DNA of 64,000 nt from Candidatus Heimdallarchaeota archaeon (GTDB lineage: Archaea > Asgardarchaeota > Heimdallarchaeia > Heimdallarchaeales > Heimdallarchaeaceae). Of the stretch, positions 16,433 to 31,246 are shown in pieces. The notes below the pieces were generated by a model that was given only the letters and a program-made list of their open reading frames with translations, did not search any database and was not told the DNA's origin. How positions within the stretch are numbered: the stretch's first letter is position 1; every line of letters starts with the position of its first letter. Where the stretch lies: NCBI GenBank assembly GCA_030668875.1, contig DAOVER010000005.1, positions 26,597 to 90,596 of the forward strand, read 5' to 3'. The position numbers and the translations under genes were made by a program.

Positions 16433-17242
16433 ATGCCACCAGGTTATATTCAAGAAATATTCTCCAGTTTTCAAGGTGAAGGAGCTTCTATTGAAGGAAG
16501 TTGCTATGGTTTAAGACAAATTTTCGTTCGGTTTTCAGGATGTCCTCTTGCTCTAGGAGTACATGGAACCAAAGGATGCATTTGGTGTGATTCTCCCAAA
16601 GCTAAAATAGCAAAACAAGAAACATGTTACATTGAAACAGATGCGGGAAATCAAGAATTTAGAGAAGAGAAAAATCCAATAAGCCCAGAAAACATCATAA
16701 AAATTATTCAGAACTTGACAACCAAAGACTTACACACCATTAGTTTGACAGGAGGAGAACCACTTTATCAACCTCAATTTCTTGAAGAGCTTCTCAATCA
16801 ACTCAAAACTGAAAGTTATAAAATATTCCTGGAAACAGCTTTCACTGATGATTTCAAGTTTCTTGAAAAAATTGCAAGTAAGATAGATTATGCTTGCGTA
16901 GATTTAAAGGATAGAACTGCAGGTGCATCAACCAATTGGGAACAGCTCATTGAGGAGGAAAGCAAAATGGTGAAAATTTTGAAAAATGCTGGGACTAAGG
17001 TTTTTGCAAAAACTGTAATAACTAAATCCTCAAAAAAAGAAGATTTTGAAGTAATCACAAAGAAATGCTCAGAAAATGATGTTCCAATTGTAATCCAGAT
17101 TGTAACGCCCATTAGGGGAACAAAAATATTACAACCAACGTGGAATCAAATCAAAGAATTCTCTGAATTAGCCGGAAAATATTTACCTCCCGAAAAGATT
17201 GGTATTTCTGTCCAGATGCACAAAAGTATAAACATACTATAG
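16433..17242 (+). CDS. queE: 7-carboxy-7-deazaguanine synthase (radical SAM)
   Basis: N-terminal IFSSFQGEGASIEG, then RFSGCPLA...CIWCDS (cluster Cys residues) and LTGGEPL. Confidence 0.8.
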   Translation: MPPGYIQEIFSSFQGEGASIEGSCYGLRQIFVRFSGCPLALGVHGTKGCIWCDSPKAKIAKQETCYIETDAGNQEFREEKNPISPENIIKIIQNLTTKDLHTISLTGGEPLYQPQFLEELLNQLKTESYKIFLETAFTDDFKFLEKIASKIDYACVDLKDRTAGASTNWEQLIEEESKMVKILKNAGTKVFAKTVITKSSKKEDFEVITKKCSENDVPIVIQIVTPIRGTKILQPTWNQIKEFSELAGKYLPPEKIGISVQMHKSINIL

Positions 17243-17254
17243 AGGCCCATAAAA

Positions 17255-18226
17255 ATGAAAGTTAAAAATGACAAACTATCTGATGTTCAATCCGATCCAT
17301 CAAGGATACAAATAGGAATTCGAAGAGTAGGAATCAGCGATATTCCTAAAATTATAAGACGAAAAAGATTCGGAGTATATAATGAATTATCAGCTAAAAT
17401 AGATGTTTATGTGGATCTTTTGCCCTCAAAAAGAGGTATTCACATGTCAAGGAATATTGAAGCAATAAATGAAGTTATTGCAACACTTACTGGAGAAGTA
17501 ATAACAGATTGTGAAGAGCTCTGTGCAAAAATTGCTGAGAAGGTAATTACAATTCAACCTGGAGCACGTTATGCAGAAGTTAGTTTAATAGCGGATTATG
17601 AGATGGAAACATTTTCAAATGCTATTTCTAGGAAAAAATCCAGCGTTCACAAGCTACGTGCTGGTGCATATGCCAAAAAAAAGGAGAATAAAATTACAAT
17701 AACAAAAGTTATTGGTGCAGAAGTTGAAGGTACAACTGTATGTCCATGCTCACAAGAACTTTCAAGAGATATATCTAAAGAGAGATTATTAAAAGAAGGA
17801 TTTTCCGAAGAACAAATCAAGAAAGTTATTGAAAATGTTCCAATGGCAGCTCATAATCAACGATCAAAATCTATACTTTTGTTCGAGCAACCTAGAGATG
17901 CAAAAAGAATAGAACTTGAAGATATCATTGAAATACTTGAAACATCAATGAGCGCTCCAATCCATGAAGTATTGAAAAGGAGAGATGAACTCGCAGTAGT
18001 ACTGTACGCCCATCAACATCCAGTTTTTGTTGAAGATGTTGTTCGAATCATATTGCGTAAAGTAAGTAAAAAATTTGTAAAGCAACCCCAAAATACTATT
18101 GTATCAGTAAAGCAGATAAATTATGAAAGCATACATCAACATAATGCAGTTGCTGAGGTTAAAACAACACTTGAAAGCCTAGATAAGCAATTAAACGGAT
18201 ATGAAAAGAATGAAAATACAGAATAA
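17255..18226 (+). CDS. folE2: GTP cyclohydrolase IB (FolE2/MptA family)
   Basis: LPSKRGIHMSRN and TVCPCSQELS motifs. Sits within the queE/queD/queC context. Confidence 0.75.
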   Translation: MKVKNDKLSDVQSDPSRIQIGIRRVGISDIPKIIRRKRFGVYNELSAKIDVYVDLLPSKRGIHMSRNIEAINEVIATLTGEVITDCEELCAKIAEKVITIQPGARYAEVSLIADYEMETFSNAISRKKSSVHKLRAGAYAKKKENKITITKVIGAEVEGTTVCPCSQELSRDISKERLLKEGFSEEQIKKVIENVPMAAHNQRSKSILLFEQPRDAKRIELEDIIEILETSMSAPIHEVLKRRDELAVVLYAHQHPVFVEDVVRIILRKVSKKFVKQPQNTIVSVKQINYESIHQHNAVAEVKTTLESLDKQLNGYEKNENTE

Positions 18227-18830
18227 AGGCAATTATTCTATTATAATTGAAGACTTGAAAAAATCAACAACTTATGATGGATCTCAGCTTTCAAGTCAGT
18301 TTACATCACAAAATTACAATGTAATAGGAAACTCAATCCTGGTTTTCAGAGGAGGGATGAAATTATCTCCAAAAGAGATGGTAGATATAAAAGATATTCA
18401 AAGAGAATCACACTTGAGTGATATTTTAATTAGTTCAGATGACAGTATACACTTTATCATAGAAGAATTTGACATTCAACCTCCAAACATGGAAATTGAA
18501 TATTATAGATTAAGAGTACTTACACAGCTAGTTATAGAATTTCTAAGGTCTAGAGGGATATCAACAACAAGAAAAGGTACAGACATATACATTCATGATA
18601 GGAAACTAAATGTAGGAATTGCAAGTATTAGTGTATCTAGTAGCAAAATACACTTTGGAATAAATCTGAGTTGTACAGGTTTTCCACAACATGTTAAAGC
18701 AACTTGTTTATTTGATTTGGACGTAAAAGAAGAGGAAATAGAAGGAATTGTTGTTCAAATAATAGAGAGATATGTGGAGGAAATACAACGAATAAAGGAA
18801 GATGTTGCAAAAACACGTTACATACATTAG
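18201..18830 (+). CDS. hypothetical protein embedded in the preQ0 operon (209 aa)
   Basis: Overlaps the folE2 3' end by 26 nt and ends 8 nt before queD. KGTDIYIHDRKLNVGIASISVSSSKIHFGINL is faintly reminiscent of the lipoate/biotin-ligase fold. Confidence 0.5.
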   Translation: MKRMKIQNKGNYSIIIEDLKKSTTYDGSQLSSQFTSQNYNVIGNSILVFRGGMKLSPKEMVDIKDIQRESHLSDILISSDDSIHFIIEEFDIQPPNMEIEYYRLRVLTQLVIEFLRSRGISTTRKGTDIYIHDRKLNVGIASISVSSSKIHFGINLSCTGFPQHVKATCLFDLDVKEEEIEGIVVQIIERYVEEIQRIKEDVAKTRYIH

Positions 18831-18838
18831 GTGATTAA

Positions 18839-19294
18839 ATGAAATTGAGGATTTCTGGAGACAAACTTACAATCGCGTGTGCCCATATGCTTTCGAAACA
18901 CGATAAATGCGCTCGTGTGCATGGTCACAATTATCAAATTGAAGTTGAAATAGAAGGAGAGATTAATGAGAGTAATATGATTATTGATTTTGGCCTCTTC
19001 AAAAAAGGTGTGAGCGAGATCCTTAAAGAATTGGATCATAAAACTTTACTACCGGAAAATAGCAAAGATTTTAACATTAAAACTAACAAAAAAGAAGTAA
19101 TAATTTCAACATGTGATGATAAAAGATATAGATTCCCTAGAGAAGATGTCAAGTTACTACCAATAGAAGCAACTACTGCTGAACTTATGTCCGTGTATTT
19201 TCATGATTTAATCAAAAAACAATTTCCAGAATTTAAAATCACAGTAATTATGTCGGAAACTCCTACGAGTAAGGTCATCTATACAGGTGATTGA
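18839..19294 (+). CDS. queD: 6-carboxy-5,6,7,8-tetrahydropterin synthase
   Basis: CAHMLSKHDKCARVHGHNYQIEVEIEG carries the Cys and His-x-His zinc/catalytic motif. Size is typical. Confidence 0.85.
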   Translation: MKLRISGDKLTIACAHMLSKHDKCARVHGHNYQIEVEIEGEINESNMIIDFGLFKKGVSEILKELDHKTLLPENSKDFNIKTNKKEVIISTCDDKRYRFPREDVKLLPIEATTAELMSVYFHDLIKKQFPEFKITVIMSETPTSKVIYTGD

Positions 19295-19355
19295 TTTTCG
19301 ATAATACGAAAATAATATGTTGAACCTACATGTCATTAAGCGAAGAGGATTAAAA

Positions 19356-20075
19356 ATGGTTATAGCAATAATATTATTCTCTGGAGGATTAGATTCTTCT
19401 GCCTGTCTTTATTGGGCTATTGAACGATATGATAGGATAATACTATTAAGTTTCAAATATGGTAGCAAAGAAGATGAAGTTATCAAAAGATTAAATCTGA
19501 AATTTGCAAATTTTTACAATTTGGAAAGCAAAATTATCTCTCTAGATTTCCTTGAAGAACTCTCCTTAAAAAGAGGTTCAAAACTCGCATCGGTTGAATC
19601 GGAACCTCCTGAATTTTCTAGTTTTAAGCAACTTGATGAGAGTAAATTGACAAAAGAGACAGCAAATCAAGTATGGGTTCCAGCAAGAAACATACTATTC
19701 ATATCCGCAGCTTCAGCTGTTGCGGATAGTTACAAGGAACCGGTTCATATCTTATTTGGTGCAAACAAAGAAGAAGCAACAACATTTCCAGATAATACTC
19801 CTGAGTTTGTAGAACGGATGAATGGTGCTATTAGTTTAGGTTGCTTAAACGAGGTTTCTGTTCTCGCACCTTTCAATACACAAATTAAAAGTGAGATCAT
19901 TGAATTTTTGATTGAAAAGAAGGCAAAATTTGAGTATATGTCTTCTTGTTATCAGGTCAAAGAATGGACAAAGGAAGGATATCCGATCCATTGTGGAATT
20001 TGTGAGTCATGCCAAAGAAAAAAGAGAGCTTTTCAAGAATCGGGGGTTTCGGATCCAACATTTTATAAGAAATAA
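19356..20075 (+). CDS. queC: 7-cyano-7-deazaguanine (preQ0) synthase
   Basis: PP-loop ILFSGGLDSS and a C-terminal zinc cluster CYQ...CGICESCQRKKRAF. The start is moved to the ATG at 19356, which follows a GAGGA-like Shine-Dalgarno (SD) sequence. Confidence 0.85.
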   Translation: MVIAIILFSGGLDSSACLYWAIERYDRIILLSFKYGSKEDEVIKRLNLKFANFYNLESKIISLDFLEELSLKRGSKLASVESEPPEFSSFKQLDESKLTKETANQVWVPARNILFISAASAVADSYKEPVHILFGANKEEATTFPDNTPEFVERMNGAISLGCLNEVSVLAPFNTQIKSEIIEFLIEKKAKFEYMSSCYQVKEWTKEGYPIHCGICESCQRKKRAFQESGVSDPTFYKK

Positions 20076-20129: not shown

Positions 20130-20783
20130 GTGAAATGTATGGGTCTACGTATCTTTTCAGTTAATAAAGATGGTAGTTTTTTCGAGGTTCCATCAGAGAA
20201 AGAGAGTTTTCTTCGCGGTGATGGAGCTTATTTGATTGTAGATAGAAAAGAAAAGAAGATATTCATCTATCGAAAAATGGGCATATCAAGTGCTTTAGCA
20301 TATTCAGCCGCTAGAGCAGCAACCAACCTTAATACACATAAGGGTTCTAGATACAAAATCATTAACATAGAGGAGGAAGAGAAGGATCGTATACTTCCAT
20401 CACTTTATCAGAGGCTAGATGTTTCGATTCCAAGTGAGATTAAAGAAAGTAAAGAAACTGCGATTGCCTCGAGAAATATTGTTTATGGTGAAACAACCAT
20501 TCCAGTTTTTGAAACAAAAAACTATTCTTCAAGCGTCCAAACTAAGAAAGAAGAGAGAGAAATACAACCTGTAAGAAAAATTCTTCAAATAGAGAAAGAG
20601 AAGGAGAGTTACAAAACTCAAAATATTGATGAGTTAGTTAAAACTTTGGCAAATCAGATTCTTTTTGAAACTAAATTAGACAAAGCCAAAAAAATGAATA
20701 AGCCAGCAAGACATATTCTGAAAGCTGAAATGGTTAAAAAGATAGATTCGTTATTAGATAATATCTATGAAGAGGACAACTAA
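20130..20783 (+). CDS. gelsolin/cofilin-like domain protein with a K/E-rich tail
   Basis: LRIFSVNKDGSFFEVPSEKESFLRGDGAYLIVDRKEKKIFIYRKMGISSALAYSAARAATNL...IEEEEK aligns by eye with the gelsolin repeat pattern (L.IWRV...VP...F..GD.Y.I......Y.W.G..S......A...A..L....E). Confidence 0.45.
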   Translation: MKCMGLRIFSVNKDGSFFEVPSEKESFLRGDGAYLIVDRKEKKIFIYRKMGISSALAYSAARAATNLNTHKGSRYKIINIEEEEKDRILPSLYQRLDVSIPSEIKESKETAIASRNIVYGETTIPVFETKNYSSSVQTKKEEREIQPVRKILQIEKEKESYKTQNIDELVKTLANQILFETKLDKAKKMNKPARHILKAEMVKKIDSLLDNIYEEDN

Positions 20784-22150
20784 TTACCCTCTTTCTGTAT
20801 TTTCGCAATGAAAAAACCTTCAGTTTCATGAAGGTGAGGATATAATTCTTGAGCTTTATTTTCCAATAGATTAGATTCTATGCCAATCATTGGTGAGGCT
20901 AGCATTAATGAAAAGTTTGAGTTGTTCTTGAGAAACTGTGAAATAATCTCATGATTTTCGTCTTCAAAGAGTGAACAAGTTGAATAAACAATACACCCAC
21001 CCACTTCAAGAAGCTTGGAGGCTTCATCAAGCAAAGCATTCTGTAGTTTAATATACCAATTAAGATCTCTCTGTTTCATTCTCCATTTAATATCAGGTCT
21101 TGAAGAATAAGTTCCTGATCCAGAGCATGGGGGATCAAGTAGAATTTTGTCAAAAGTTGATTTAACAGTTTTTTTTAGAGTTCTCGCGTCTGCTGATAAA
21201 ATTTTAACTTCTTCAGCACCTAACAATTTTAATCGATCAGTTAATATTTTCACTCTTTCCTTGTTTAAATCAACAGCCAAGATATTTTTTGCTGTACCAG
21301 CTTGAGCTACAATATGTGAAGTTTTTCCCCCTGGTGATGCGCACATATCGAGTATTTCCTCGCCTAGTTGTGGATTCAGAACTAGTGAAACCAAGGCAGA
21401 AGCTTTTTGCTGTATAACAAGCTTGCCTTCCTTAAATTCATCTAAACGTGGAATTGGTACAGGTGTTTCATCAATGCGTATAAGATTTGGTATAATTTCA
21501 ACAGGGGTGTACTTTATCTCATAGGTTGCAAGATTGTCAACAATCTCATCAAAAGATGCTTTTAGGGTATTAATTCTTACATACATCGGGATACTTTCAA
21601 GTAAGGATTGCAAAACTTTCTCTGTGAAATCTACTCCCCATTGTTTGATGAATTTCCTAATTATCCAAGTATAAGTAAAATACTTCAGAGAATATTTTGA
21701 GGGTAAATCTTCGCGATTCTCAAAGAGATTTTCTTCAGTTACTGATTGGATTAATTCTAACAAAGTGTCAAAAGACATTTGAGCAACGGAGCGATAGTAG
21801 GGTTCAAGCATAGTAACTACTTCGTCAACTGGTTTATTATTTACTTTCAACATGTGTGTAGCTATGCGTAATAGTGCTCTCATATCACTCTTTATTTTTT
21901 TCAGAGAGAAATTTGATGAGCTTGTTTTTATAAAAAGATCAATCCAGTTAAGTTTTCTATAAATCTCATTAGTATAATAATATAGAGTAGATTCTTCTTC
22001 TCTATCTAAATTATATTGATTAACGTGAAAACGTAAAACATTACGTAAAGATTTCCCATTATCTATATCTTCTAATGCAGACATAACTATAGGAATAATA
22101 GAATCCATCACATCCCAACTCTCTCTTCTGGAGTCATTGTCTCTTTTCAC
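20780..22150 (-). CDS. NOL1/NOP2/Sun (RsmB-like) RNA cytosine-C5 methyltransferase
   Basis: DMCASPGGKT, LLDPPCSGSGT and YSTCS motifs. Confidence 0.9.
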   Translation of the reverse strand: MKRDNDSRRESWDVMDSIIPIVMSALEDIDNGKSLRNVLRFHVNQYNLDREEESTLYYYTNEIYRKLNWIDLFIKTSSSNFSLKKIKSDMRALLRIATHMLKVNNKPVDEVVTMLEPYYRSVAQMSFDTLLELIQSVTEENLFENREDLPSKYSLKYFTYTWIIRKFIKQWGVDFTEKVLQSLLESIPMYVRINTLKASFDEIVDNLATYEIKYTPVEIIPNLIRIDETPVPIPRLDEFKEGKLVIQQKASALVSLVLNPQLGEEILDMCASPGGKTSHIVAQAGTAKNILAVDLNKERVKILTDRLKLLGAEEVKILSADARTLKKTVKSTFDKILLDPPCSGSGTYSSRPDIKWRMKQRDLNWYIKLQNALLDEASKLLEVGGCIVYSTCSLFEDENHEIISQFLKNNSNFSLMLASPMIGIESNLLENKAQELYPHLHETEGFFIAKIQKEGN

Positions 22151-23943: not shown

Positions 23944-25221
23944 ATGGGTGGAATTAAGAGAAAAAGAAAGAAAATCGAAACGCCAGGTCATCCTTATGAT
24001 AAAGCTCGCTTAGAGAGAGAACTCCCTCTTGTTGGTGCTTATGGTTTAAGAAACAAGCGCGAATTATGGAAAGCAAGAACTATTCTTTCTACAGCTAGAC
24101 AACAAGCTAGAGGCTTACTAGCTCTTGACCCTGAAATTAGAAAAGTTAGAGAACAAGAACTTCTTTCAAGACTCTCTCGTTTTGGTATGTTATCTCAGAA
24201 TAGCAATCTTGACTCTGTTTTAGCACTTGAAATTAAAGTCATTCTTGAAAGAAGACTTCAAACAATTGTATTCAGAAAAGGTTTAGCATCCTCTCCGTAC
24301 CAAGCTCGTCAATTTATTGCTCACAGACACATAGCTATTGGAACTGGTGTTGCAACATCTCCTAGCAGATTAATCACAATAGCTGAAGAGGAGATAGTCA
24401 ACTACGCTCCCCGTTCTCCACTGAATGATCAAACTCATCCTTCGCGACCTCAAGCACCTCCTGCTTTTGATGCGGGGCAACCTGAGAAAAGGGAAGAACA
24501 TAAGCGTGAAAGAACTGGAAGAGATGGCAAACCTAGAAGGAAAGAAGCTCCAAAGAAGGAAACTAAACCAGGAGTTAAACCAAAACCAGAGGTAAAGAAG
24601 GAAACTCCAAAGAAAGAAGCTCCAAAGAAGGAAACTAAACCAGGAGTTAAACCAAAACCAGAGGTAAAGAAGGAAACTCCAAAGAAAGAAGTTCCAAAGA
24701 AGGAAACTCCAAAACCAGAGGTAAAGAAGGAAACTCCAAAGAAAGAAGTTCCAAAGAAGGAAACTCCAAAACCAGAGGTAAAGAAGGAAACTCCAAAACC
24801 AGAGGTAAAAAAGGAAACTCCAAAACCAGAGGTTAAAACAAAGCCAGAAGTGAAGAAAGAGGTTCCAAAGAAGGAAACTAAACCAGAAGTTAAAACAAAG
24901 CCAGAGGTAAAGAAGGAAACTCCAAAACCAGAGGTAAAGAAGGAAACTCCAAAACCAGAGGTTAAAACAAAGCCAGAAGTAAAGAAAGAAGCTCCAAAGA
25001 AGGAAACTAAAATCTCTGACCTTGACATCTCTTTGATAAAAGGTATTGGTGCAAAAACTGCCATGCTTCTCAAAGAAAATGGCTTTGATACTGTTGGTAA
25101 GATTGCTAAGGCAACTACTGAAGAACTTTCCAAAGTTCCAGGTGTTGGTCCCGCTACTGCATCAGCTATGAATAGTGAAGCTAAAGTTTTGCTTTCAAAG
25201 AAAGCTGAGGATAAGAAGTAG
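23944..25221 (+). CDS. rps4: 30S ribosomal protein uS4 with a C-terminal extension of about 260 aa (K/P/E tandem repeats plus an HhH module)
   Basis: The N-terminal ~165 aa is a normal archaeal S4 (PGHPYDKARLERE...S4 RNA-binding domain). Then come KPEVKKETPKKE repeats and ISDLDISLIKGIGAKTAMLLKENGFDTVGKIAKATTEELSKVPGVGPATA. Confidence 0.9.
   Translation: MGGIKRKRKKIETPGHPYDKARLERELPLVGAYGLRNKRELWKARTILSTARQQARGLLALDPEIRKVREQELLSRLSRFGMLSQNSNLDSVLALEIKVILERRLQTIVFRKGLASSPYQARQFIAHRHIAIGTGVATSPSRLITIAEEEIVNYAPRSPLNDQTHPSRPQAPPAFDAGQPEKREEHKRERTGRDGKPRRKEAPKKETKPGVKPKPEVKKETPKKEAPKKETKPGVKPKPEVKKETPKKEVPKKETPKPEVKKETPKKEVPKKETPKPEVKKETPKPEVKKETPKPEVKTKPEVKKEVPKKETKPEVKTKPEVKKETPKPEVKKETPKPEVKTKPEVKKEAPKKETKISDLDISLIKGIGAKTAMLLKENGFDTVGKIAKATTEELSKVPGVGPATASAMNSEAKVLLSKKAEDKK
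24544..25008 (+). repeat. in-frame coding tandem repeats inside uS4 (72-nt unit x2, 57-nt unit x2, then shorter KPEVKKETP variants)
   Basis: gaagctccaaagaaggaaactaaaccaggagttaaaccaaaaccagaggtaaagaaggaaactccaaagaaa recurs with a 72-nt period at 24544 and 24616. Related units continue to about 25008. Confidence 0.9.
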
Positions 25222-25228
25222 GTGAAGT

Positions 25229-25714
25229 ATGATGAGTAAAAAAGAAGAAACTAAAGTTAAATCTGAAGAAAAGTCTGAAGAAAAAACTGAAACAACAGAA
25301 TCTTCGCGACCTGAGCGACCAAGAAGAAGAGAATCTAAACACGGGATAGCACATATCTTTTCAAGCTATAATGACACAATCATCCACATAACAGACATCT
25401 CTGGAGCTGAAACATTCAGCCGTAAAAGTGGAGGAATGTTTGTGAAAGCAGACAGAAATGAATCAAGTCCTTATGCAGCAATGAAAGCAGCAAACGCAGC
25501 AGCACAAGAATCGCAAGCAAAAGGAATATATCAACTGTATGTAAGATATAGGGCACCAGGAGGACATAAAAATAGAACTCCAGGACCAGGAACACAAGCA
25601 GCATTACGTGCACTGAAAAGATCAGGAATGAGAATAATAAGACTAGAAGATGTAACTCCATTGCCACACAATGGTTGTAGGAGAAAGGGTGGCCGTAGAG
25701 GCCGTAGAATGTAG
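25229..25714 (+). CDS. rps11: 30S ribosomal protein uS11 with a K/E-rich N-terminal extension
   Basis: [18 protein letters not shown] ... [23 protein letters not shown]. Confidence 0.9.
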
Positions 25715-25765: not shown

Positions 25766-25805
25766 GGTTTATATCCCATTTTCTTTATTATAATTTGAAG
25801 AGTTT

Positions 25806-26252
25806 ATGACAATTACTAAAGCTAAAATATTTGCATGTGAAATCTGTGGGAAAGAGTTTGGAAGAAAGGACAATCTAGGAAGGCACAAAATAACAGTTCA
25901 TTCCAAATCACAGAAGCATAAATGTCCAAAGTGCAATTTTTCTTCAACAAGAAAAGATAGTCTTGATAAACATATCAAAGAAGTTCACAGTGAAGTAAAG
26001 CAATATTCTTGTAAAATGTGTGGAGAAAGGTTCACACAAAAAGGGAGTATGGAAAGGCATATAGATTCCTCTCATAAAGACGTTTTTTCTTTTGCATGTC
26101 CCAAATGCAATTCAATTTTCTCAAGAAAAGATAGCTTGTTACGACATATCAGAAGTGTGCACGAAGGTATAAGACCTCACAAATGTTCAGAATGTGGTAA
26201 AAGCTTTCAACATAAACATCATCTGAAGGATCACCTAATTTTAGGTCATTGA
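25806..26252 (+). CDS. C2H2 zinc-finger protein, 5 tandem fingers
   Basis: There are five C-x2-C-x12-H-x4-H units, for example CEICGKEFGRKDNLGRHKITVH and CSECGKSFQHKHHLKDHLILGH. The period is about 28-29 aa with linkers such as EGIRPHKC. Confidence 0.9.
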   Translation: MTITKAKIFACEICGKEFGRKDNLGRHKITVHSKSQKHKCPKCNFSSTRKDSLDKHIKEVHSEVKQYSCKMCGERFTQKGSMERHIDSSHKDVFSFACPKCNSIFSRKDSLLRHIRSVHEGIRPHKCSECGKSFQHKHHLKDHLILGH

Positions 26253-26261
26253 GGGAAGGAA

Positions 26262-27425
26262 ATGAGTAACTCGGAAAAAATAATAATGCGACCAACTTGT
26301 GAAATCTGCGGTCTTAGTTTTTCAAGAAAAGACAGTTTGTATAGACACAAACGATCAGTTCATTCAGAGTCAAAGAAATATAGCTGTACAGAATGCAATC
26401 TCACATTTTCTCGTAAAGATACACTGGATCGTCACATCAATGATGTCCACAAACAAATAAGGAAATATATTTGTACCATATGTGACGAGAAGTTCAAACA
26501 AGCGGGTGCTCTAAAAAGACATATCCAAACAATGCATGAGAAGAATATTAGTTATGAATGTCCAAACTGTGATGCAGCATTCCCGCGTAAAGACAACCTA
26601 GACAGACACATAAATGCCGTTCATTTAAACCTCCGACCCCACATTTGCCAGGAATGTGGTGCAGCTTTCAAACTACCTGATCACCTTAAGCAGCACATTA
26701 TTTCCATACATACTGACCGGCGTCAATATGTTTGTGATGAATGTGGTTTTGCTTTCAAACTTCGTCAACATCTAAATGATCATGTCAAAGTTGTTCACCT
26801 AGGTCTTCGTTCTTATGCTTGTGAGGAATGTGATTCTTCTTTTGCTCATGCTCGTGCTCTTAAGCAACACATTATTTCTGTTCATACCGATGAACTTCCT
26901 TATGTTTGCGAGAAATGTAAGAGAGGATTTGCAGATCCTAGTCATCTATATAGGCATGAAAAAGCTGAAGCTTGTTGGTTTACAACTACTACTGCCTACA
27001 AATGGGAAGAGCTTTGTAAAGAGATAGCTGAGATTCTTTTAGAGGAAAAGAATTGGGAGTGGAAACCTACTATAGAAACACCTGAGTTGGTTGAACAGAC
27101 TAGAGTGCAGCCTGAGATTGTTATCTATAATGATGATGGTACGATGGATTTTATCGATGCTAAGAGGTCTACTTATGCTATTTTCAAGGAGAAGGATCTG
27201 GTAGTTTATCCTAAGGTGGCTAGGAGGGTGGAGTTCTGGTGCCTCTACGGTAAAACCAAGGGGATATTTGAAGAGGAGGAAGGGGTGGAAGCGAAATCAA
27301 GTGAAGAAATCATTGGCAAACTAGAAAAGGAAGATTCGCATGATGGACAGAGAGTAAGGAATCTAATAATGAAGATTAGTTTATTGAAAAAGGGAATAAG
27401 ATTTGAAGGACAACAGACACTGTAG
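26262..27425 (+). CDS. C2H2 zinc-finger protein with 8 tandem fingers and a C-terminal domain of about 150 aa carrying a PD-(D/E)XK-like motif
   Basis: Seven C-x2-C-x12-H-x4-H fingers plus a terminal C2HC-like finger (CEKCKRGFADPSHLYRHEKAEAC). The C-terminal region has KWEELCKEIAEILLEE ... VQPEIVIYNDDGTMDFIDAKRS. Confidence 0.85.
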   Translation: MSNSEKIIMRPTCEICGLSFSRKDSLYRHKRSVHSESKKYSCTECNLTFSRKDTLDRHINDVHKQIRKYICTICDEKFKQAGALKRHIQTMHEKNISYECPNCDAAFPRKDNLDRHINAVHLNLRPHICQECGAAFKLPDHLKQHIISIHTDRRQYVCDECGFAFKLRQHLNDHVKVVHLGLRSYACEECDSSFAHARALKQHIISVHTDELPYVCEKCKRGFADPSHLYRHEKAEACWFTTTTAYKWEELCKEIAEILLEEKNWEWKPTIETPELVEQTRVQPEIVIYNDDGTMDFIDAKRSTYAIFKEKDLVVYPKVARRVEFWCLYGKTKGIFEEEEGVEAKSSEEIIGKLEKEDSHDGQRVRNLIMKISLLKKGIRFEGQQTL

Positions 27426-27464: not shown

Positions 27465-28283
27465 TCAATACCCATACCTTGAGGGTAAGCTTGATCTGTA
27501 ATCATAACTTCTAAACAAGTTTTCAATTAACCGAGGGATAGATTCGCCCCTAAAATCTCTAACTGTGTCTATTATATCGTCATCTTTACCCTCTAACAGC
27601 TTCAACCAAAGCTGAGGTTTGTATCTTACAATGTTGGAAAGCATCCAAGAACCTACAAATGCATCAAATGGGTTATAACTTCCTATCACATCAACAAATG
27701 AAGGAACAGATCTCTTTTCCAAATAATCAGAAATATTTGGAAAGCCCTTGAGATTGTCTTCAGCTAAAAGAAGTAGTAAGCTGTAAAAAACACCTTTATC
27801 ATAGACTTTAGCATGCATATACGGTCTGTTTTCTACATATTTGCCTTTTTTCGAAAGACCATGATGAGTGAAGAAAAACACCTCGTCTTTCATTTCATAT
27901 TCAAGACAGAACACTCCTTTGACACATTGTAATAATGCATAGTATTCAACAAGTGGGCTAGAGTTTTCATCCATTTTTAAGGCAGTTTTAAACATCTCAT
28001 AGATCTGTTGAAAATAGATACTAGAATAAATAGCTATTTCAGTATAATCGATTTCAAAATCCCTAGTTTTCACTAGATTTGCTTTCTTATGGATATTTTC
28101 TAGAAGATTAATTTTTGCATCTTTACGCTCTCTTTCAGTCTTATGGATTCTTCTAGATTTCATTTGCTCTTCTTTTGAATCACAGGTTGGATTGAACCTG
28201 GTAATCAATTTTTTCTTAAGATAATATGGAATAGAGTATTTCTCAAGATTATAGAGAACGATTTGGTGATACTTGTCAATCAT
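27465..28283 (-). CDS. hypothetical protein, YaaC-like (weak), partner of the PLD nuclease gene
   Basis: Starts 3 nt after the upstream PLD gene stop. The C-terminal SWMLSNIVRYKPQLWLKLLEG resembles the YaaC-family ...RY.P..W... region. Confidence 0.35.
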   Translation of the reverse strand: MIDKYHQIVLYNLEKYSIPYYLKKKLITRFNPTCDSKEEQMKSRRIHKTERERKDAKINLLENIHKKANLVKTRDFEIDYTEIAIYSSIYFQQIYEMFKTALKMDENSSPLVEYYALLQCVKGVFCLEYEMKDEVFFFTHHGLSKKGKYVENRPYMHAKVYDKGVFYSLLLLLAEDNLKGFPNISDYLEKRSVPSFVDVIGSYNPFDAFVGSWMLSNIVRYKPQLWLKLLEGKDDDIIDTVRDFRGESIPRLIENLFRSYDYRSSLPSRYGY

Positions 28284-28285
28284 TA

Positions 28286-29068
28286 TTAAACCTCAGTTTT
28301 ATTAATTTTCAATCGGATTGGTTTCAGTTGTCTATAGCAAGAACGGCAGGCAGGTTTATTTGTTGAAATACTTACCTCAGCTCCACATATGTGACAATAA
28401 TTTCCCTTAACAAAACCTCTTCTCTTATCTTTCCAACAATCCTTACACCTTATAACGTGGGTCTCTATTGCATCAAGAGCTATTTTTTTCTTGCAAACTA
28501 TGCAAAAACCCAGTTCTTCTTGATTTTCAGCATAAACAGTAAAGTGTTCTCCTTCTTGTTTGAATTGTAGCTCAATCGCCTGTTTACCATTATCAATAGC
28601 TCTAATTTCTTCTCCATTTCTAACAAGAACTGAGATATATTTATCAATCAATTCTAAGTTAGGCAAATCGTCTTCACCTTCGAAATCGACTCCAATCTCA
28701 AAGTTATCCTTTAGTGAATGGTAATAAAGATTCATTGAAGTAGTTAATGCTCTATCTCCATTATAATAACACTTTGCATGAAGATTAGGTACAAGCCAAA
28801 TTTCATCAGAATAATCGTATAGCTTATCTCTTATAGCTTGTGTTTTCGTCAACCTTTTCTCAGCTGATTTATCATCTGGTTTTCTTGTAATAAAGACAAT
28901 TTGCAGATCTTTGTTTTGTTCTATTAAACTATCCATTAACCTAGACCACTGACCATCTTTTTTTTCAAGTTGAATATAGGGGCTAACTATATGTATGTGT
29001 TTAGTAGCCCTTTCAACTATTTCCTCTATAGCCCCAAATATAGAGCCAGTGCTTGTTAGAATTTTCAC
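28286..29068 (-). CDS. PLD-superfamily (single HKD, Nuc-like) nuclease with a C-terminal four-CxxC zinc ribbon
   Basis: NLHAKCYYNGDRALTTSMNL is an HxK...D...SxN motif. The C-terminus has CIVC...CKDC...CHIC...CRSC. Confidence 0.6.
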   Translation of the reverse strand: MKILTSTGSIFGAIEEIVERATKHIHIVSPYIQLEKKDGQWSRLMDSLIEQNKDLQIVFITRKPDDKSAEKRLTKTQAIRDKLYDYSDEIWLVPNLHAKCYYNGDRALTTSMNLYYHSLKDNFEIGVDFEGEDDLPNLELIDKYISVLVRNGEEIRAIDNGKQAIELQFKQEGEHFTVYAENQEELGFCIVCKKKIALDAIETHVIRCKDCWKDKRRGFVKGNYCHICGAEVSISTNKPACRSCYRQLKPIRLKINKTEV

Positions 29069-29122
29069 TTCTTTTCACTTCCCATCCAAGCAAATAATTA
29101 AATAAACTATAAAAGTTTTTAG

Positions 29123-29139
29123 GGGATTTATTGTTTGAT
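29123..29139. repeat. left copy of the 17-bp direct repeat flanking the IS (gggatttattgtttgat)
   Basis: An identical 17-mer occurs at 30142..30158. Confidence 0.9.
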
Positions 29140-30141
29140 GTTAACTCAACTAAGATCGGTTACACTTTTGGGCAGGATATCTTTGGGAGGTTGGTTCATA
29201 AATCTTTCACCTGGAGTTTGGAGGTTGATTCCTTGATGAGGGCGGAAGAAGTTGTAATAGTCCCTATAGCGCCGGAGGTCAGCGTTACAATAAGCTAATC
29301 CCAGCCGCTTCAGCTCTCTGACGGTTGTACCATGCTGGCGCTCTACTTTCCCACAAGTCTCAGGGTGGAAGAAACGGCTGCGGATATGCTTTATTCCTTC
29401 CTGAGCGAGCACGCGGGTGAAGGTACTTGTCCCTCCTCGCATAGAGTGGAACTGTGCTCCATTGTCTGTTAGTACTTGCTGGGGACGCCTATAAAGCTGG
29501 AAGCAGTGGTGTAACCTTGTCAAGATCTCTTGCTGGCTAATAGGATGGGTGTAGAGTCTACTCTCCAGGAGGAAGCGGGAGTGGTCATCAATGATGGTTA
29601 AAAGATAAAGGTGTTGTCCTTGCTCTTCCACCCAGAAGGGACCTTTGATATCCAGTTGCCAGAGGTCATTGGGTTTGGGTCGTTCGAATCTCTTTCTCGC
29701 CTTCTTCTTGTACGGTTTCTTTCTCCAAGGAGGTTCTCCTTCTCGTTGGAGAGTCTTCCAGATGGTGGTGTGGGAGAGCACCAAGCCTTTCCTCTTGAAC
29801 CATTGCTCAGTCTGCATGATGTTCAAGCCATAGGCTCGTCTCAAGGTGAGGATCTTCTTCTTTATCTGTGGTGTTACCTTTCTCCTTATGCATCTTGGTC
29901 GTCGAGAGCGTTCTTCCCACCATTTTCCCTTGGGGTTCTCACGATAACGTCTTAACCAGGTGTAGACGAATTTTCTTGAGACCATGTACTGTCGAGCAAG
30001 GTGGGTGATAGGTGTTCTTTTCAAAGCCTTTTTAACTACGCGTTTCCTTATAAGTGTCGGGTTACTGTTCGGGTTCATTTAACTCATTTACCCACGGTAA
30101 CCCCTCTTATTTAACTGTCACCAATGTGGGTGGAGTTAACA
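29140..30141 (-). mobile_element. IS481-like insertion sequence (about 1.0 kb, single transposase ORF)
   Basis: Imperfect terminal inverted repeats: (T)GTTAACTCAACTAAGATCGG versus the reverse complement TGTTAACTCCACCCACATTGG. It is flanked by a 16-17 bp direct repeat. GC content is clearly higher (about 50% in lines I counted) than the flanks (about 30-35%). Confidence 0.85.
29146..30078 (-). CDS. DDE transposase (HTH plus integrase-core rve domain), IS481-family-like
   Basis: LWQLDIKGPF (first D), IIDDHSRF, LTDNGAQF (second D), HPETCGKVERQH (E) and YNFFRPHQGI. Confidence 0.9.
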   Translation of the reverse strand: MNPNSNPTLIRKRVVKKALKRTPITHLARQYMVSRKFVYTWLRRYRENPKGKWWEERSRRPRCIRRKVTPQIKKKILTLRRAYGLNIMQTEQWFKRKGLVLSHTTIWKTLQREGEPPWRKKPYKKKARKRFERPKPNDLWQLDIKGPFWVEEQGQHLYLLTIIDDHSRFLLESRLYTHPISQQEILTRLHHCFQLYRRPQQVLTDNGAQFHSMRGGTSTFTRVLAQEGIKHIRSRFFHPETCGKVERQHGTTVRELKRLGLAYCNADLRRYRDYYNFFRPHQGINLQTPGERFMNQPPKDILPKSVTDLS

Positions 30142-30158
30142 GGGATTTATTGTTTGAT
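30142..30158. repeat. right copy of the 17-bp direct repeat flanking the IS
   Basis: Identical to 29123..29139. Confidence 0.9.
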
Positions 30159-30175
30159 TAATGAAAAGTTCTGTA

Positions 30176-31246
30176 TCATCGTTGTCTTATAACATAATTT
30201 ACAATTGTTTCAACCTCTTTTGAAGAAAATGTTTCTTCGAAATAAGAGATATAATTCACTATTTCTTTAAGTGAAAGAACTTTCACAAACTGAAATTGCT
30301 CTTTAGGTTTAGCATTAGTCATTAGAAGCACACTACGAATAGCGATTTTCTTTTTTCCCCAATGATGAGAACTAAGACGAAGAGAACCACTAGAAACAGA
30401 GCTATTTAGAAGAGTGAAAAGAGCAAAATTTGCACGTCTAATTTGTTTAACTGGTGAAAACAGGTTCAGATTTTGTAGAGATTTCTCGCTCCAGTTTTTA
30501 GTTTCAAGTAAAAACACTCCTGAAGGACCAACAACAAGATGGTCAACTTGTATAGATAATATTTTATCATTTTCTTTTCTATTGCAAATTGGACGATTAA
30601 AAGACATCTGAAGATCATTGATAACAGTGAATGTATCTGGAAGTTTCTTTAGTTCTTCAGTAACTTGTTGTTCTCCTATGGTTCCAGAAATTAGGGTGTA
30701 GTTATCATCTAAAATTCTATTTATGAGATTGATTCGGTTAGTATAATTTTGAGATCGTTTTGATATTAAGGTTTCAAAGTTGGTTTCACGATAGGTTACA
30801 TCGCGTTCTAGATTCTTAATTTTCTTGGAAAGATGACGAAAGGGTTTTTCAACTTCATCTATAAAATAGTGTGTCAACTTGTCAAGTCTTTTAGAAAGTT
30901 GATTGAGTTTAATTTTGTAAAATAGGAGCTTGAAAGGATTCTTAGTCGATGAGGAATATTGAATGATCTTAGAAGGGATTAGTTCTTTTTCTTCATTAAG
31001 TAATTTTGTTTGATTAGATATCATCTCTTGATATTGATTTGTGAGTAGAGTATAATCGGATTTAAGTTGACTAATTTCAGCAAGAAGTTTCTCTTTTTGC
31101 TGTTCTTGATGCTGTGAAATAGAATTTTTCCAAGTTTTCTTAAAAGTCTGTATTGATTCAAGAGTTGAAAACTCTCTGATGTTATTTTGTTTTAAGACAT
31201 ATAGAAGATGATTAAGAGAACTAGAATTACCATATATGCGAGCCAA
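30176..31246 (-). CDS. NERD (nuclease-related domain) protein with a long N-terminal coiled coil
   Basis: GTIGEQQVTEELKKLPDTFTVINDL...ILSIQVDHLVVGPSGVFLLETKNW is the NERD signature. The N-terminal ~190 aa is heptad-rich. Confidence 0.8.
   Translation of the reverse strand: MARIYGNSSSLNHLLYVLKQNNIREFSTLESIQTFKKTWKNSISQHQEQQKEKLLAEISQLKSDYTLLTNQYQEMISNQTKLLNEEKELIPSKIIQYSSSTKNPFKLLFYKIKLNQLSKRLDKLTHYFIDEVEKPFRHLSKKIKNLERDVTYRETNFETLISKRSQNYTNRINLINRILDDNYTLISGTIGEQQVTEELKKLPDTFTVINDLQMSFNRPICNRKENDKILSIQVDHLVVGPSGVFLLETKNWSEKSLQNLNLFSPVKQIRRANFALFTLLNSSVSSGSLRLSSHHWGKKKIAIRSVLLMTNAKPKEQFQFVKVLSLKEIVNYISYFEETFSSKEVETIVNYVIRQR

Follow-up and report, generated by a model that had tools for sequence, protein, structure and literature searches.

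A candidate natural zinc-finger nuclease encoded beside ribosomal protein genes in Heimdallarchaeota

An open reading frame from a Heimdallarchaeota archaeon encodes a 387-residue protein in which an array of eight C2H2 zinc fingers runs into a C-terminal domain that very likely adopts the PD-(D/E)XK nuclease fold. We interpret this protein as a modular, finger-directed DNA endonuclease, most likely with a homing-like role, and place the probability of this reading at about 0.6, with cleavage itself being inferred. Zinc-finger nucleases are generally seen as a human invention, combining eukaryotic fingers with the bacterial FokI domain, and a natural fusion would matter in this respect. The initial annotation of the locus, made from sequence alone, had suggested a natural counterpart of these engineered enzymes; this suggestion is supported by our analysis, although a cut directed by the fingers remains an inference.

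In the mechanism we propose, the eight fingers would read up to ~24 bp and, joined via a C2HC finger 8 and without a flexible linker to a ~110-residue PD-(D/E)XK core, would allow this core to cut DNA close to the site bound by the fingers and at a constant spacing from it. Within the core, E249, E285, and D299 would bind Mg2+, and K301 would act as the general catalytic lysine. The gene would be a free-standing homing-endonuclease-like element, selfish or domesticated, parked after the S13-S4-S11 ribosomal protein genes of Heimdallarchaeaceae, and its target could be the conserved 3' end of S11.

Domain architecture, predicted fold, and catalytic signature

The gene was analysed within a 64,000-nucleotide stretch of contig DAOVER010000005.1 (hereafter "the window"), in which the following features were delineated, with the supporting evidence in brackets:

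25806..26252, + strand: companion gene, a 5-finger C2H2 protein without nuclease (Pfam, 5 fingers; synteny; sequence)
26262..27425, + strand: putative zinc-finger nuclease gene, 387 aa, eight fingers plus PD-(D/E)XK domain (ORF list, Pfam)
26298..26975, + strand: eight-C2H2-finger array, residues 13-238 (Pfam zf-C2H2, 87-nt DNA periodicity, junction alignment)
26976..27296, + strand: predicted PD-(D/E)XK nuclease core, residues 239-345 (helix 1, three strands, helices, strand 4, strand 5)
27006..27008, + strand: E249 codon, the helix 1 acidic residue in an invariant W-E (alignment)
27111..27116, + strand: P284-E285 codons, the "PD" motif at the start of strand 2 (alignment; strand 52-55 of the tail model)
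27156..27164, + strand: D299-A300-K301 codons, the "(D/E)xK" motif on strand 3 (alignment; strand 61-69 of the tail model)
27297..27425, + strand: C-terminal helical tail, residues 346-387, and stop codon (model helices 113-122 and 128-142; alignment)

The finger array was recognised by Pfam as eight stretches of zf-C2H2 (E 2e-43) and by zf-H2C2_2 (E 1e-35), with a period of 29 residues (87 nt) and 7-residue linkers of canonical length. It thus fulfils the definition of eukaryote-type tandem C2H2 proteins, namely repeated C-x2-4-C-x12-H-x3-5-H units separated by short linkers of conserved length. Finger 8 is of the C2HC type (ligands C216, C219, H232, and C238), as is the last finger of all finger-fused members of the family, and its fourth ligand lies inside a conserved A-C-W-[FY] junction, ten residues before the W-E of nuclease helix 1. 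A structural model of fingers 7-8 together with the nuclease domain (pLDDT 91, pTM 0.79) displayed no low-confidence linker, which suggests a fixed geometry between last finger and active site; both are thus predicted to be rigidly placed, an inference that rests on this model. Engineered zinc-finger nucleases include a flexible linker, whereas the Heimdallarchaeota protein apparently has none. The companion gene, located 9 nt upstream, encodes fingers that resemble fingers 1-5 of the putative nuclease; it is found in some orthologous loci and missing from four of them (L004, L008, L009, and L015).

Within the tail (residues 239-387, nt 26976-27425), the initial annotation had highlighted the peptides KWEELCKEIAEILLEE, WEWKPTI, VQPEIVIYNDDG, TMDFIDAKRS, and AIFKEKDLVVYPKVARRVEFWCLYG along with P284-E285 and D299-A300-K301, and had guessed from these an order of helices and strands and a PD-(D/E)XK-like domain fused to the eight fingers. 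All peptides and positions are present as described, the guessed order matches the AlphaFold2 model, and the fusion is supported by fold, motif, conservation, and architecture, with activity being inferred. This model, built from a 31-sequence alignment (A2), reached a pLDDT of 92.3 and a pTM of 0.87, and comprises, numbering from residue 235, a helix (3-25), strands (31-33, 52-55, and 61-69), helices (70-85), and a strand (88-95). The complete order of helix, small strands, strand, strand, helices, strand, strand, and two helices includes the alpha-beta-beta-beta-alpha-beta core that characterises the PD-(D/E)XK superfamily. The top Foldseek match in the PDB was EcoO109I (E 7e-4), and searches against both the PDB and viral models returned the same fold and nothing else notable; one match in BFVD (E 1e-3) carries a phage homing endonuclease annotation. 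Other structural matches included Can1, R.BspD6I, NgoMIV, McrC, NucS, and EcoRII, as well as FokI (7.0), Bax1, and the R2 endonuclease (6.6), and the best structural matches were DNA nucleases. A non-nuclease fold would have refuted the annotated domain, and this did not occur. Hence, we consider a PD-(D/E)XK fold for the tail very likely, with the caveat that it is predicted by a model and that individual residues were not superposed in 3D.

At the sequence level, profile searches gave no significant match to a PD-(D/E)XK family. The tail has no family in Pfam, NCBIfam, or PADLOC and no match to any PDB sequence, and a PDB profile search returned nothing below an E of 0.2. When 31 members were searched against curated PD-(D/E)XK families, the best matches were RmuC (E 0.017, 3 members) and VRR_NUC (E 0.07, 1 member), both below threshold, and no curated profile (Mrr_cat, NucS, RmuC, VRR_NUC, NERD, Cas4, I-Ssp6803I, and others) was matched at threshold. 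Pairwise hhalign comparisons of the tail were not significant either, whether to the FokI cleavage domain (E 0.43) or to the NERD protein encoded in the window itself. Membership in the superfamily thus rests on predicted structure and motif without a sequence-level match, and on this basis we place the tail in a separate family within the PD-(D/E)XK superfamily, outside all curated sequence families and unrecognised by the domain databases searched.

Relatives of the tail support the motif. When 1.84 billion representatives were scanned exhaustively with HMMER, 49 clusters (50% identity) were recovered at E <= 1e-3, including 29 at E <= 1e-10, one of the 49 (P0048) being a spurious repeat protein. 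Across 62 aligned sequences, with denominators that differ by position, W248 was kept in 47/47 and E249 in 45/47 (Q in the remaining two), P284 in 54/54, and K301 in 57/58, while an acidic residue occupied position 285 in 53/54 (37 E and 16 D) and position 299 in 57/58; an additional pair, K311-D312, was conserved in 56/57. In the model, W-E sits on helix 1, P-E starts strand 52-55, and D-A-K falls within strand 61-69. The catalytic signature of the superfamily (a helix 1 acid, (P)D/E, and (D/E)xK) is thus present and conserved across relatives, which establishes that the motif is more than a chance resemblance. The expectation that homologues would conserve E285, D299, and K301 held in nearly all sequences, and extends to E249. 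In the sole exception, P0049, the three motif positions are lost together, and its contig looks viral, with a prohead protease and many small unknown ORFs. We consider the tail likely to be catalytically competent, although catalysis is inferred and no biochemical evidence is available.

The same C-terminal domain is re-used behind several other arrays. These include C2H2 arrays ranging from 1 to 9 fingers, among them several in which the linkers are of the canonical TGE[KR]P type, sets of five DUF4379 treble-clef fingers (zinc ribbons), six to eight HTH repeats, the Pfam "homing endonuclease associated repeat", and DUF6011 combined with fingers. Site-specific nucleases, such as type IIS enzymes and modular homing endonucleases, are built in this way, from one catalytic domain and swappable tandem DNA-binding arrays; transcription factors are not. 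This bears on an alternative in which the protein would be a DNA-binding regulator, i.e., a transcription factor or chromatin protein whose non-cutting domain serves in dimerisation, DNA clamping, or ligand binding. We regard this as unlikely: retention of E, P-D/E, and D/E-x-K at frequencies of 45/47 to 57/58 would be unexpected if the domain were non-catalytic, and arrays of six to eight HTH or five DUF4379 modules ahead of this domain do not look like those of regulators. For a nuclease, finger-directed cleavage of DNA is the reading toward which we lean, with both catalysis and targeting by the fingers inferred. Some relatives were found in virus-like or mobile-element contexts, and the close-family pattern recovered no relative from 2.9 million viral contigs. 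The contigs encoding the HTH-array and DUF4379-array relatives were too short for informative context.

Genomic context and selection

Upstream of the two finger genes lie a tRNA-Ser and then the directly adjoining genes for ribosomal proteins S13, S4, and S11, with a 7-deazaguanine (queuosine/archaeosine-type) biosynthesis cluster farther upstream, and the surrounding genes are archaeal. The putative nuclease gene is found directly after S13-S4-S11 in at least 11 Heimdallarchaeota loci (the window, L002-L009, L012, and L015), and orthologues in this same position outside the window are 61-77% identical. Carriers correspond to eight species-level Heimdallarchaeota genomes and further metagenomic contigs, all with the gene directly after S13-S4-S11, whether or not the small finger gene is present; the metagenome scan contributed one locus only. 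In two Heimdallarchaeaceae loci, L013 and L014, no such gene follows S11. One of these non-carriers, L013, is as near to the window genome as carriers are, based on S13 and S4 identity (85% and 79%, compared to 83% and 77% for the carrier L015 and 78% and 72% for the carrier L006). Sporadic presence and absence at a single locus, as expected of free-standing homing endonucleases, is thus observed here. As a separate observation, the gene appears to have its own promoter-like element, from which we infer that it is not an integral operon member.

Downstream and on the opposite strand, the window encodes a YaaC-like protein, a PLD-like (DrmC-like) protein with zinc ribbons, an IS-type integrase, and a NERD protein, and the initial annotation had placed the finger gene at the head of this nuclease-rich island. 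The island exists, but the proposed link failed: the constant neighbour is S13-S4-S11, while the region immediately downstream varies by genome (PLD-like, YaaC-like, NERD, or others) before conserved genes resume, and the IS element is restricted to the window among the loci compared. We therefore rejected the view of the gene as part of the island, since island content differs in every genome while the gene stays, and interpret the island as a variable hotspot beside the gene rather than as a system that includes it. A Tn7/TnsA reading was also rejected at this locus, where the expected TnsB (rve), TnsC (AAA+), and TniQ genes and a TnsA-like fold were not found.

These observations weigh against a nuclease of the adjacent island that would defend against viruses or plasmids, with fast-evolving fingers that track invaders. 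In favour of this alternative, the gene adjoins a hotspot that includes PLD-like (DrmC-like), YaaC-like, and NERD proteins and an IS element, and close genomes differ strongly in the region encoding fingers 1-4. However, island content turns over while the nuclease gene remains, PADLOC returned a weak zinc-finger match and nothing further, the DNA-contact positions -1 and 6 of the fingers are conserved rather than diversified, and more distant relatives have different genes downstream (HIT and LysRS). We therefore consider a defence function very unlikely.

The linkage to ribosomal protein genes could instead be explained by an RNA-directed enzyme of ribosome biogenesis, in which a TFIIIA-like array would bind rRNA or structured RNA for processing by the nuclease domain. 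Against this, the gene is dispensable in related genomes, fusion partners across the family are DNA-binding modules, the closest structural matches are DNA nucleases, and an apparent promoter of its own argues against integral operon membership, itself an inference. This alternative is thus also very unlikely, although the preference for a DNA rather than an RNA substrate is inferred.

Selection acts unevenly along the protein. Among orthologues, dN/dS was ~0.10 for the nuclease core, ~0.09 for fingers 5-8, 0.22 for fingers 1-4, and ~0.30 for the C-terminal helices, with synonymous divergence being saturated; the nuclease core and fingers 5-8 are thus under strong purifying selection. Within finger helices, entropy was 0.09 at position -1 and 0.52 at position 6, compared to ~1.0-1.4 in their surroundings, and position 3 varied like the background. 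Between close genomes, the finger-coding part forms an island of divergence, 2-4 times more diverged than the flanks at synonymous sites: fingers 1-4 showed amino-acid identities of 45-53% and a pS of 0.76-0.86, against 0.12-0.21 in the flanks. For the window and L009, these values were 45% and 0.86 in fingers 1-4, with a pS of 0.28 in the nuclease core and 0.16-0.21 in the flanks. This pattern suggests recombination or replacement within the array. Disrupted copies were also observed: in one orthologue the finger-nuclease junction is interrupted by an in-frame stop, and a second orthologue (P0006) is seemingly truncated within the nuclease domain.

The most serious alternative is a host site-specific nuclease or nickase, acting for instance in recombination, repair, or processing at a defined site on the chromosome, and inherited vertically with losses in some Heimdallarchaeaceae lineages. 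In its favour, 11 loci keep the gene behind S13-S4-S11, purifying selection is strong on fingers 5-8 and on the nuclease core, conserved contact residues -1 and 6 imply a conserved target, and divergence of the core tracks that of the flanks (0.28 vs 0.16-0.21 in the comparison above). Stable synteny and strong purifying selection are indeed no harder to reconcile with a host function than with a selfish element. On the other hand, the gene is missing from L013 despite its close relationship to carriers, disrupted copies exist, the wider family includes mobile-element-like architectures and contexts, and the finger-coding part exceeds the flanks in synonymous divergence. A host nuclease therefore remains possible, and a domesticated one is nearly as plausible as a homing-like role. 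We nonetheless favour a homing-like, free-standing gene beside its target as the likeliest single story, based on its patchy presence, the disrupted copies, the mobile-element-like relatives, and a code-predicted site in S11.

Ribosomal protein S11 as a possible target

The canonical finger code assigns the 5' base of each triplet to helix position 6, the middle base to position 3, and the 3' base to position -1, with R/K specifying G, Q/N specifying A, D/E specifying C, and H at position 3 specifying G. Scoring with this code pointed to the following sites, which are hypothetical:

25656..25679, - strand: candidate target (hypothesis only), antisense of S11 codons T-P-L-P-H-N-G-C (canonical-code scoring)
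TACAACCATTGTGTGGCAATGGAG: the window's own S11 candidate site
TGCATCCATTGTGTGGGAGAGGTG and TACAACCATCATGTGGTAGTGGTG: candidate S11 3'-end sites in gene-lacking L013/L014-type genomes

The candidate target precedes the S11 stop codon by ~35 nt and the finger genes by ~130 nt. The most reliable rules of the code predict 5'-GGC NNN CGN NGN GNG GNA GNG GNG, and when the 14-base high-confidence pattern was searched with up to 3 mismatches (<=3) across ~212 kb, i.e., the window and all loci, it matched solely at the antisense T-P-L-P-H-N/D-G-C site of S11. With the full code table applied to all positions of both strands, this site was the unique best of ~20,800 positions in both gene-lacking loci (17/24 in L013 and 16/24 in L014), and was again the best in both with the fingers of other orthologues. 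It ranked first or second in most carrier loci, and 8th with ties in the window. Sites in carrier genomes scored 13.8 with their own fingers, compared to 15.6 in gene-lacking genomes, as a homing model predicts, although these values are not independent. In the S11 register, the middle base of each finger falls on a codon wobble position.

Several limitations make this lead fragile. The recognition table was crude and set down after the site had been seen, and with S11 at the centre of the loci, the agreement in location looks stronger than it is. When finger order was permuted, a score of at least 17/24 in L013 was reached in 2.9% of permutations, and the L014 score in 22%. A first, strict code-derived 24-mer had no match in the window at <=3 mismatches. 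A half-site for fingers 1-4, GNGGNAGNGGNG, matched the window once, within the gene's own EEEEG-coding region, and was rejected as chance (0.4 matches expected, 31% of shuffles reaching one, and a misfit in the flank). Covariation between position 3 of finger 3 and the wobble base looked perfect for 8 genomes and broke down once L012 and L015 were added, and this partial pattern was set aside as support. The S11 3' end as a target is a hypothesis only, possible but not more than this.

A bolder reading, which we also regard as no more than possible, is that Asgard archaea may encode plug-and-play programmable nucleases, in which one PD-(D/E)XK domain is combined with interchangeable arrays, the window member being an S11 zinc-finger homing endonuclease. 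This protein would recognise the coding sequence of S11 T-P-x-P-H-N-G-C, called universally conserved, beside its insertion point; residues -1 and 6 of the fingers might read codon positions 1 and 2, with the variable position 3 placed on the wobble base. If the S11 lead holds, this would be a homing endonuclease of a new class, one in which a coding sequence is read codon by codon, and if the bolder reading is true, DNA targeting by poly-zinc-finger arrays coupled to cleavage would have existed in the archaeal relatives of eukaryotes.

Relationship to known nucleases and zinc-finger proteins

Type IIS enzymes such as FokI, and the zinc-finger nucleases engineered from FokI, combine a separate recognition module with a non-specific PD-(D/E)XK cleavage domain; the Heimdallarchaeota protein fits this scheme at the level of architecture alone. 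Unlike in FokI-based zinc-finger nucleases, its fingers are natural and the last of these is fused into the first helix of the nuclease without a linker, and the tail has no detectable sequence relationship to FokI. FokI-type systems also include a partner methyltransferase, while no cognate DNA methyltransferase was found among the neighbours of the Heimdallarchaeota gene, the only nearby methyltransferase being an RsmB-type rRNA enzyme 4 kb upstream.

Homing endonucleases with a PD-(D/E)XK fold are precedented by I-Ssp6803I and I-Bth0305I, with a long target (PMC3424549, groups 58 and 68). The tail shares its predicted fold with I-Ssp6803I and the Vsr-like I-Bth0305I, and its family swaps tandem modules that include the homing endonuclease associated repeat. 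Like free-standing homing endonucleases, the Heimdallarchaeota gene displays patchy presence at a single locus next to a highly conserved gene. It differs in lying outside any intron or intein, in having no match to PF11645 or the Vsr families, and in its stably syntenic orthologues under purifying selection; mobility and target are unproven. Relationships to other nuclease domains are similarly distant: those of AF1548 (PDB 1y88), Mrr-like proteins, Can2/Card1, and LlaBIII share 10-12% sequence identity with the tail and no profile-level match, and are associated with different partners (HhH, CARF, and helicase-methyltransferase).

For the fingers, the closest parallels are poly-C2H2 proteins of Asgard archaea and eukaryotes, with which this protein has in common tandem C-x2-C-x12-H-x3-H fingers and 7-residue linkers. 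C2H2 arrays have been described in Asgard archaea on the TniQ proteins of archaeal Tn7 (bioRxiv 10.1101/2025.07.27.667033), i.e., in the same host phylum, where fingers choose DNA sites for a DNA-processing machine, as proposed here. Proteins of R2-type retrotransposons include a reverse transcriptase and differ in domain order and finger number, whereas the Heimdallarchaeota gene has no reverse transcriptase and an archaeal host. A search of the open-access literature found no report of a C2H2 and PD-(D/E)XK fusion in archaea. We consider this protein to represent a nuclease family and a natural architecture that are both new; at the sequence level, it belongs to none of these known families.

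If confirmed, finger-directed cleavage would give the poly-C2H2 arrays of Asgard archaea, which are poorly understood, a function open to testing, and bear on the origin of the largest family of eukaryotic DNA-binding proteins. The compact cleavage domain (~110-150 aa), already suited to a place right behind a finger array, would likewise be a candidate for small genome-editing reagents. Beyond the core, the C-terminal helical tail may contribute to dimerisation, which is a guess only; its SS..LI and LI..I..L..G helices are conserved in the alignment.

Transcription and divergence of the finger genes

The small finger gene, which encodes five C2H2 fingers without a nuclease domain, and the downstream gene for the putative finger-nuclease may be cotranscribed as a two-gene unit from an archaeal promoter of their own. 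This arrangement is suggested by a TTTATAT element ahead of the first gene, located within the 91-nt gap that separates it from S11, and by the purine-rich GGGAAGGA immediately preceding the ATG of the second.

25768-25774: TTTATAT element, 32-38 nt before the small finger gene's ATG

When the window was compared to four related loci (L009, L002, L003, and L004), the finger-coding DNA (25806-26975) stood out as an island of divergence, with synonymous divergence of 0.6-0.86. Both flanks were close, with values of 0.12-0.21 for S11 on the immediate upstream side and 0.27-0.32 for the nuclease core on the immediate downstream side. Because the diverged segment is bounded in this way by similar sequences, recombination or replacement may have occurred inside the finger arrays. 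Mosaic divergence between genomes was also observed in the MBL-fold gene (32503) and the PfkB gene (36328).

Genes flanking the finger-nuclease locus

Upstream, the window encodes a long ribosomal protein S4 as well as a compact cluster for the synthesis of 7-deazaguanine (archaeosine/queuosine-type) bases; a variable hotspot lies directly downstream of the nuclease gene.

16433-20075 (+) and 20780-22150 (-): 7-deazaguanine base synthesis cluster
23944-25221 (+): ribosomal protein S4 gene, 425-aa product
27465-31246 (-): variable hotspot
29146-30078: IS-type rve integrase, a hotspot gene

In this S4 protein, the normal S4 domain is followed by a stretch of about 200 residues made up of repeats rich in lysine, proline, and glutamate (KKETPKPEV...), and a helix-hairpin-helix domain (HHH_5, E 4e-13) lies at the C-terminus. 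Long S4 proteins of 360-365 aa with HHH matches were also identified in L015, which carries the nuclease gene, and in L013, which does not, and the S4 of L014, another locus without the nuclease gene, is of the plain form (205 aa). The 7-deazaguanine cluster includes genes for a radical-SAM QueE-like protein, the GTP cyclohydrolase FolE2, DUF366, a PTPS/QueD-like protein, and QueC, and is adjoined by an RsmB-type RNA methyltransferase gene. The same 7-deazaguanine gene set was found in L014 on the other side of S11.

Across the related loci L002-L009, the subset of hotspot genes was different in every genome, and the IS was present in the window only. The window hotspot also encodes a YaaC-like protein, a PLD-like (DrmC/DpdK-like) protein with a double zinc ribbon, and a NERD protein whose N-terminus is a long coiled coil.

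Apparently disrupted copies and other relatives

In the L008 orthologue (1267-2430), an in-frame stop codon takes the exact place of the tryptophan at the junction between fingers and nuclease (AC*Y), downstream of which an intact-looking nuclease ORF remains, and the relative P0006 is apparently truncated within its nuclease domain. These disruptions could represent either true decay or MAG sequencing errors. In the one-finger relative P0049, all three catalytic motif positions are replaced (PP ... F-T-R).

L010 8001-8591: P0049, one-finger relative

Its 56-kb contig, on which a prohead protease (Peptidase_S78) is encoded together with dozens of small ORFs that lack annotation, is likely an archaeal virus harboring an inactivated copy.

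The distant family member P0010 (eight fingers plus nuclease) is encoded in L018 near genes for an NYN nuclease, an AAA_22 ATPase, and a 737-aa rve-family protein, surroundings that constitute a mobile-element or Tn7-like neighborhood. The nuclease family may be linked to transposons. Some members (P0017, P0024, and P0025) include an N-terminal DUF6011 domain, along with a 140-250-residue extension after the nuclease domain composed of repeated C-x2-C ... DHV.AC.G units, which form a second zinc-binding array, at the C-terminus. Finally, weak structural matches in BFVD, including a "C2H2-type domain-containing protein" and a 542-aa protein of Heterosigma akashiwo virus 01 as well as EsV-1-115, hint that giant viruses of algae, too, might have proteins combining fingers with a restriction fold.
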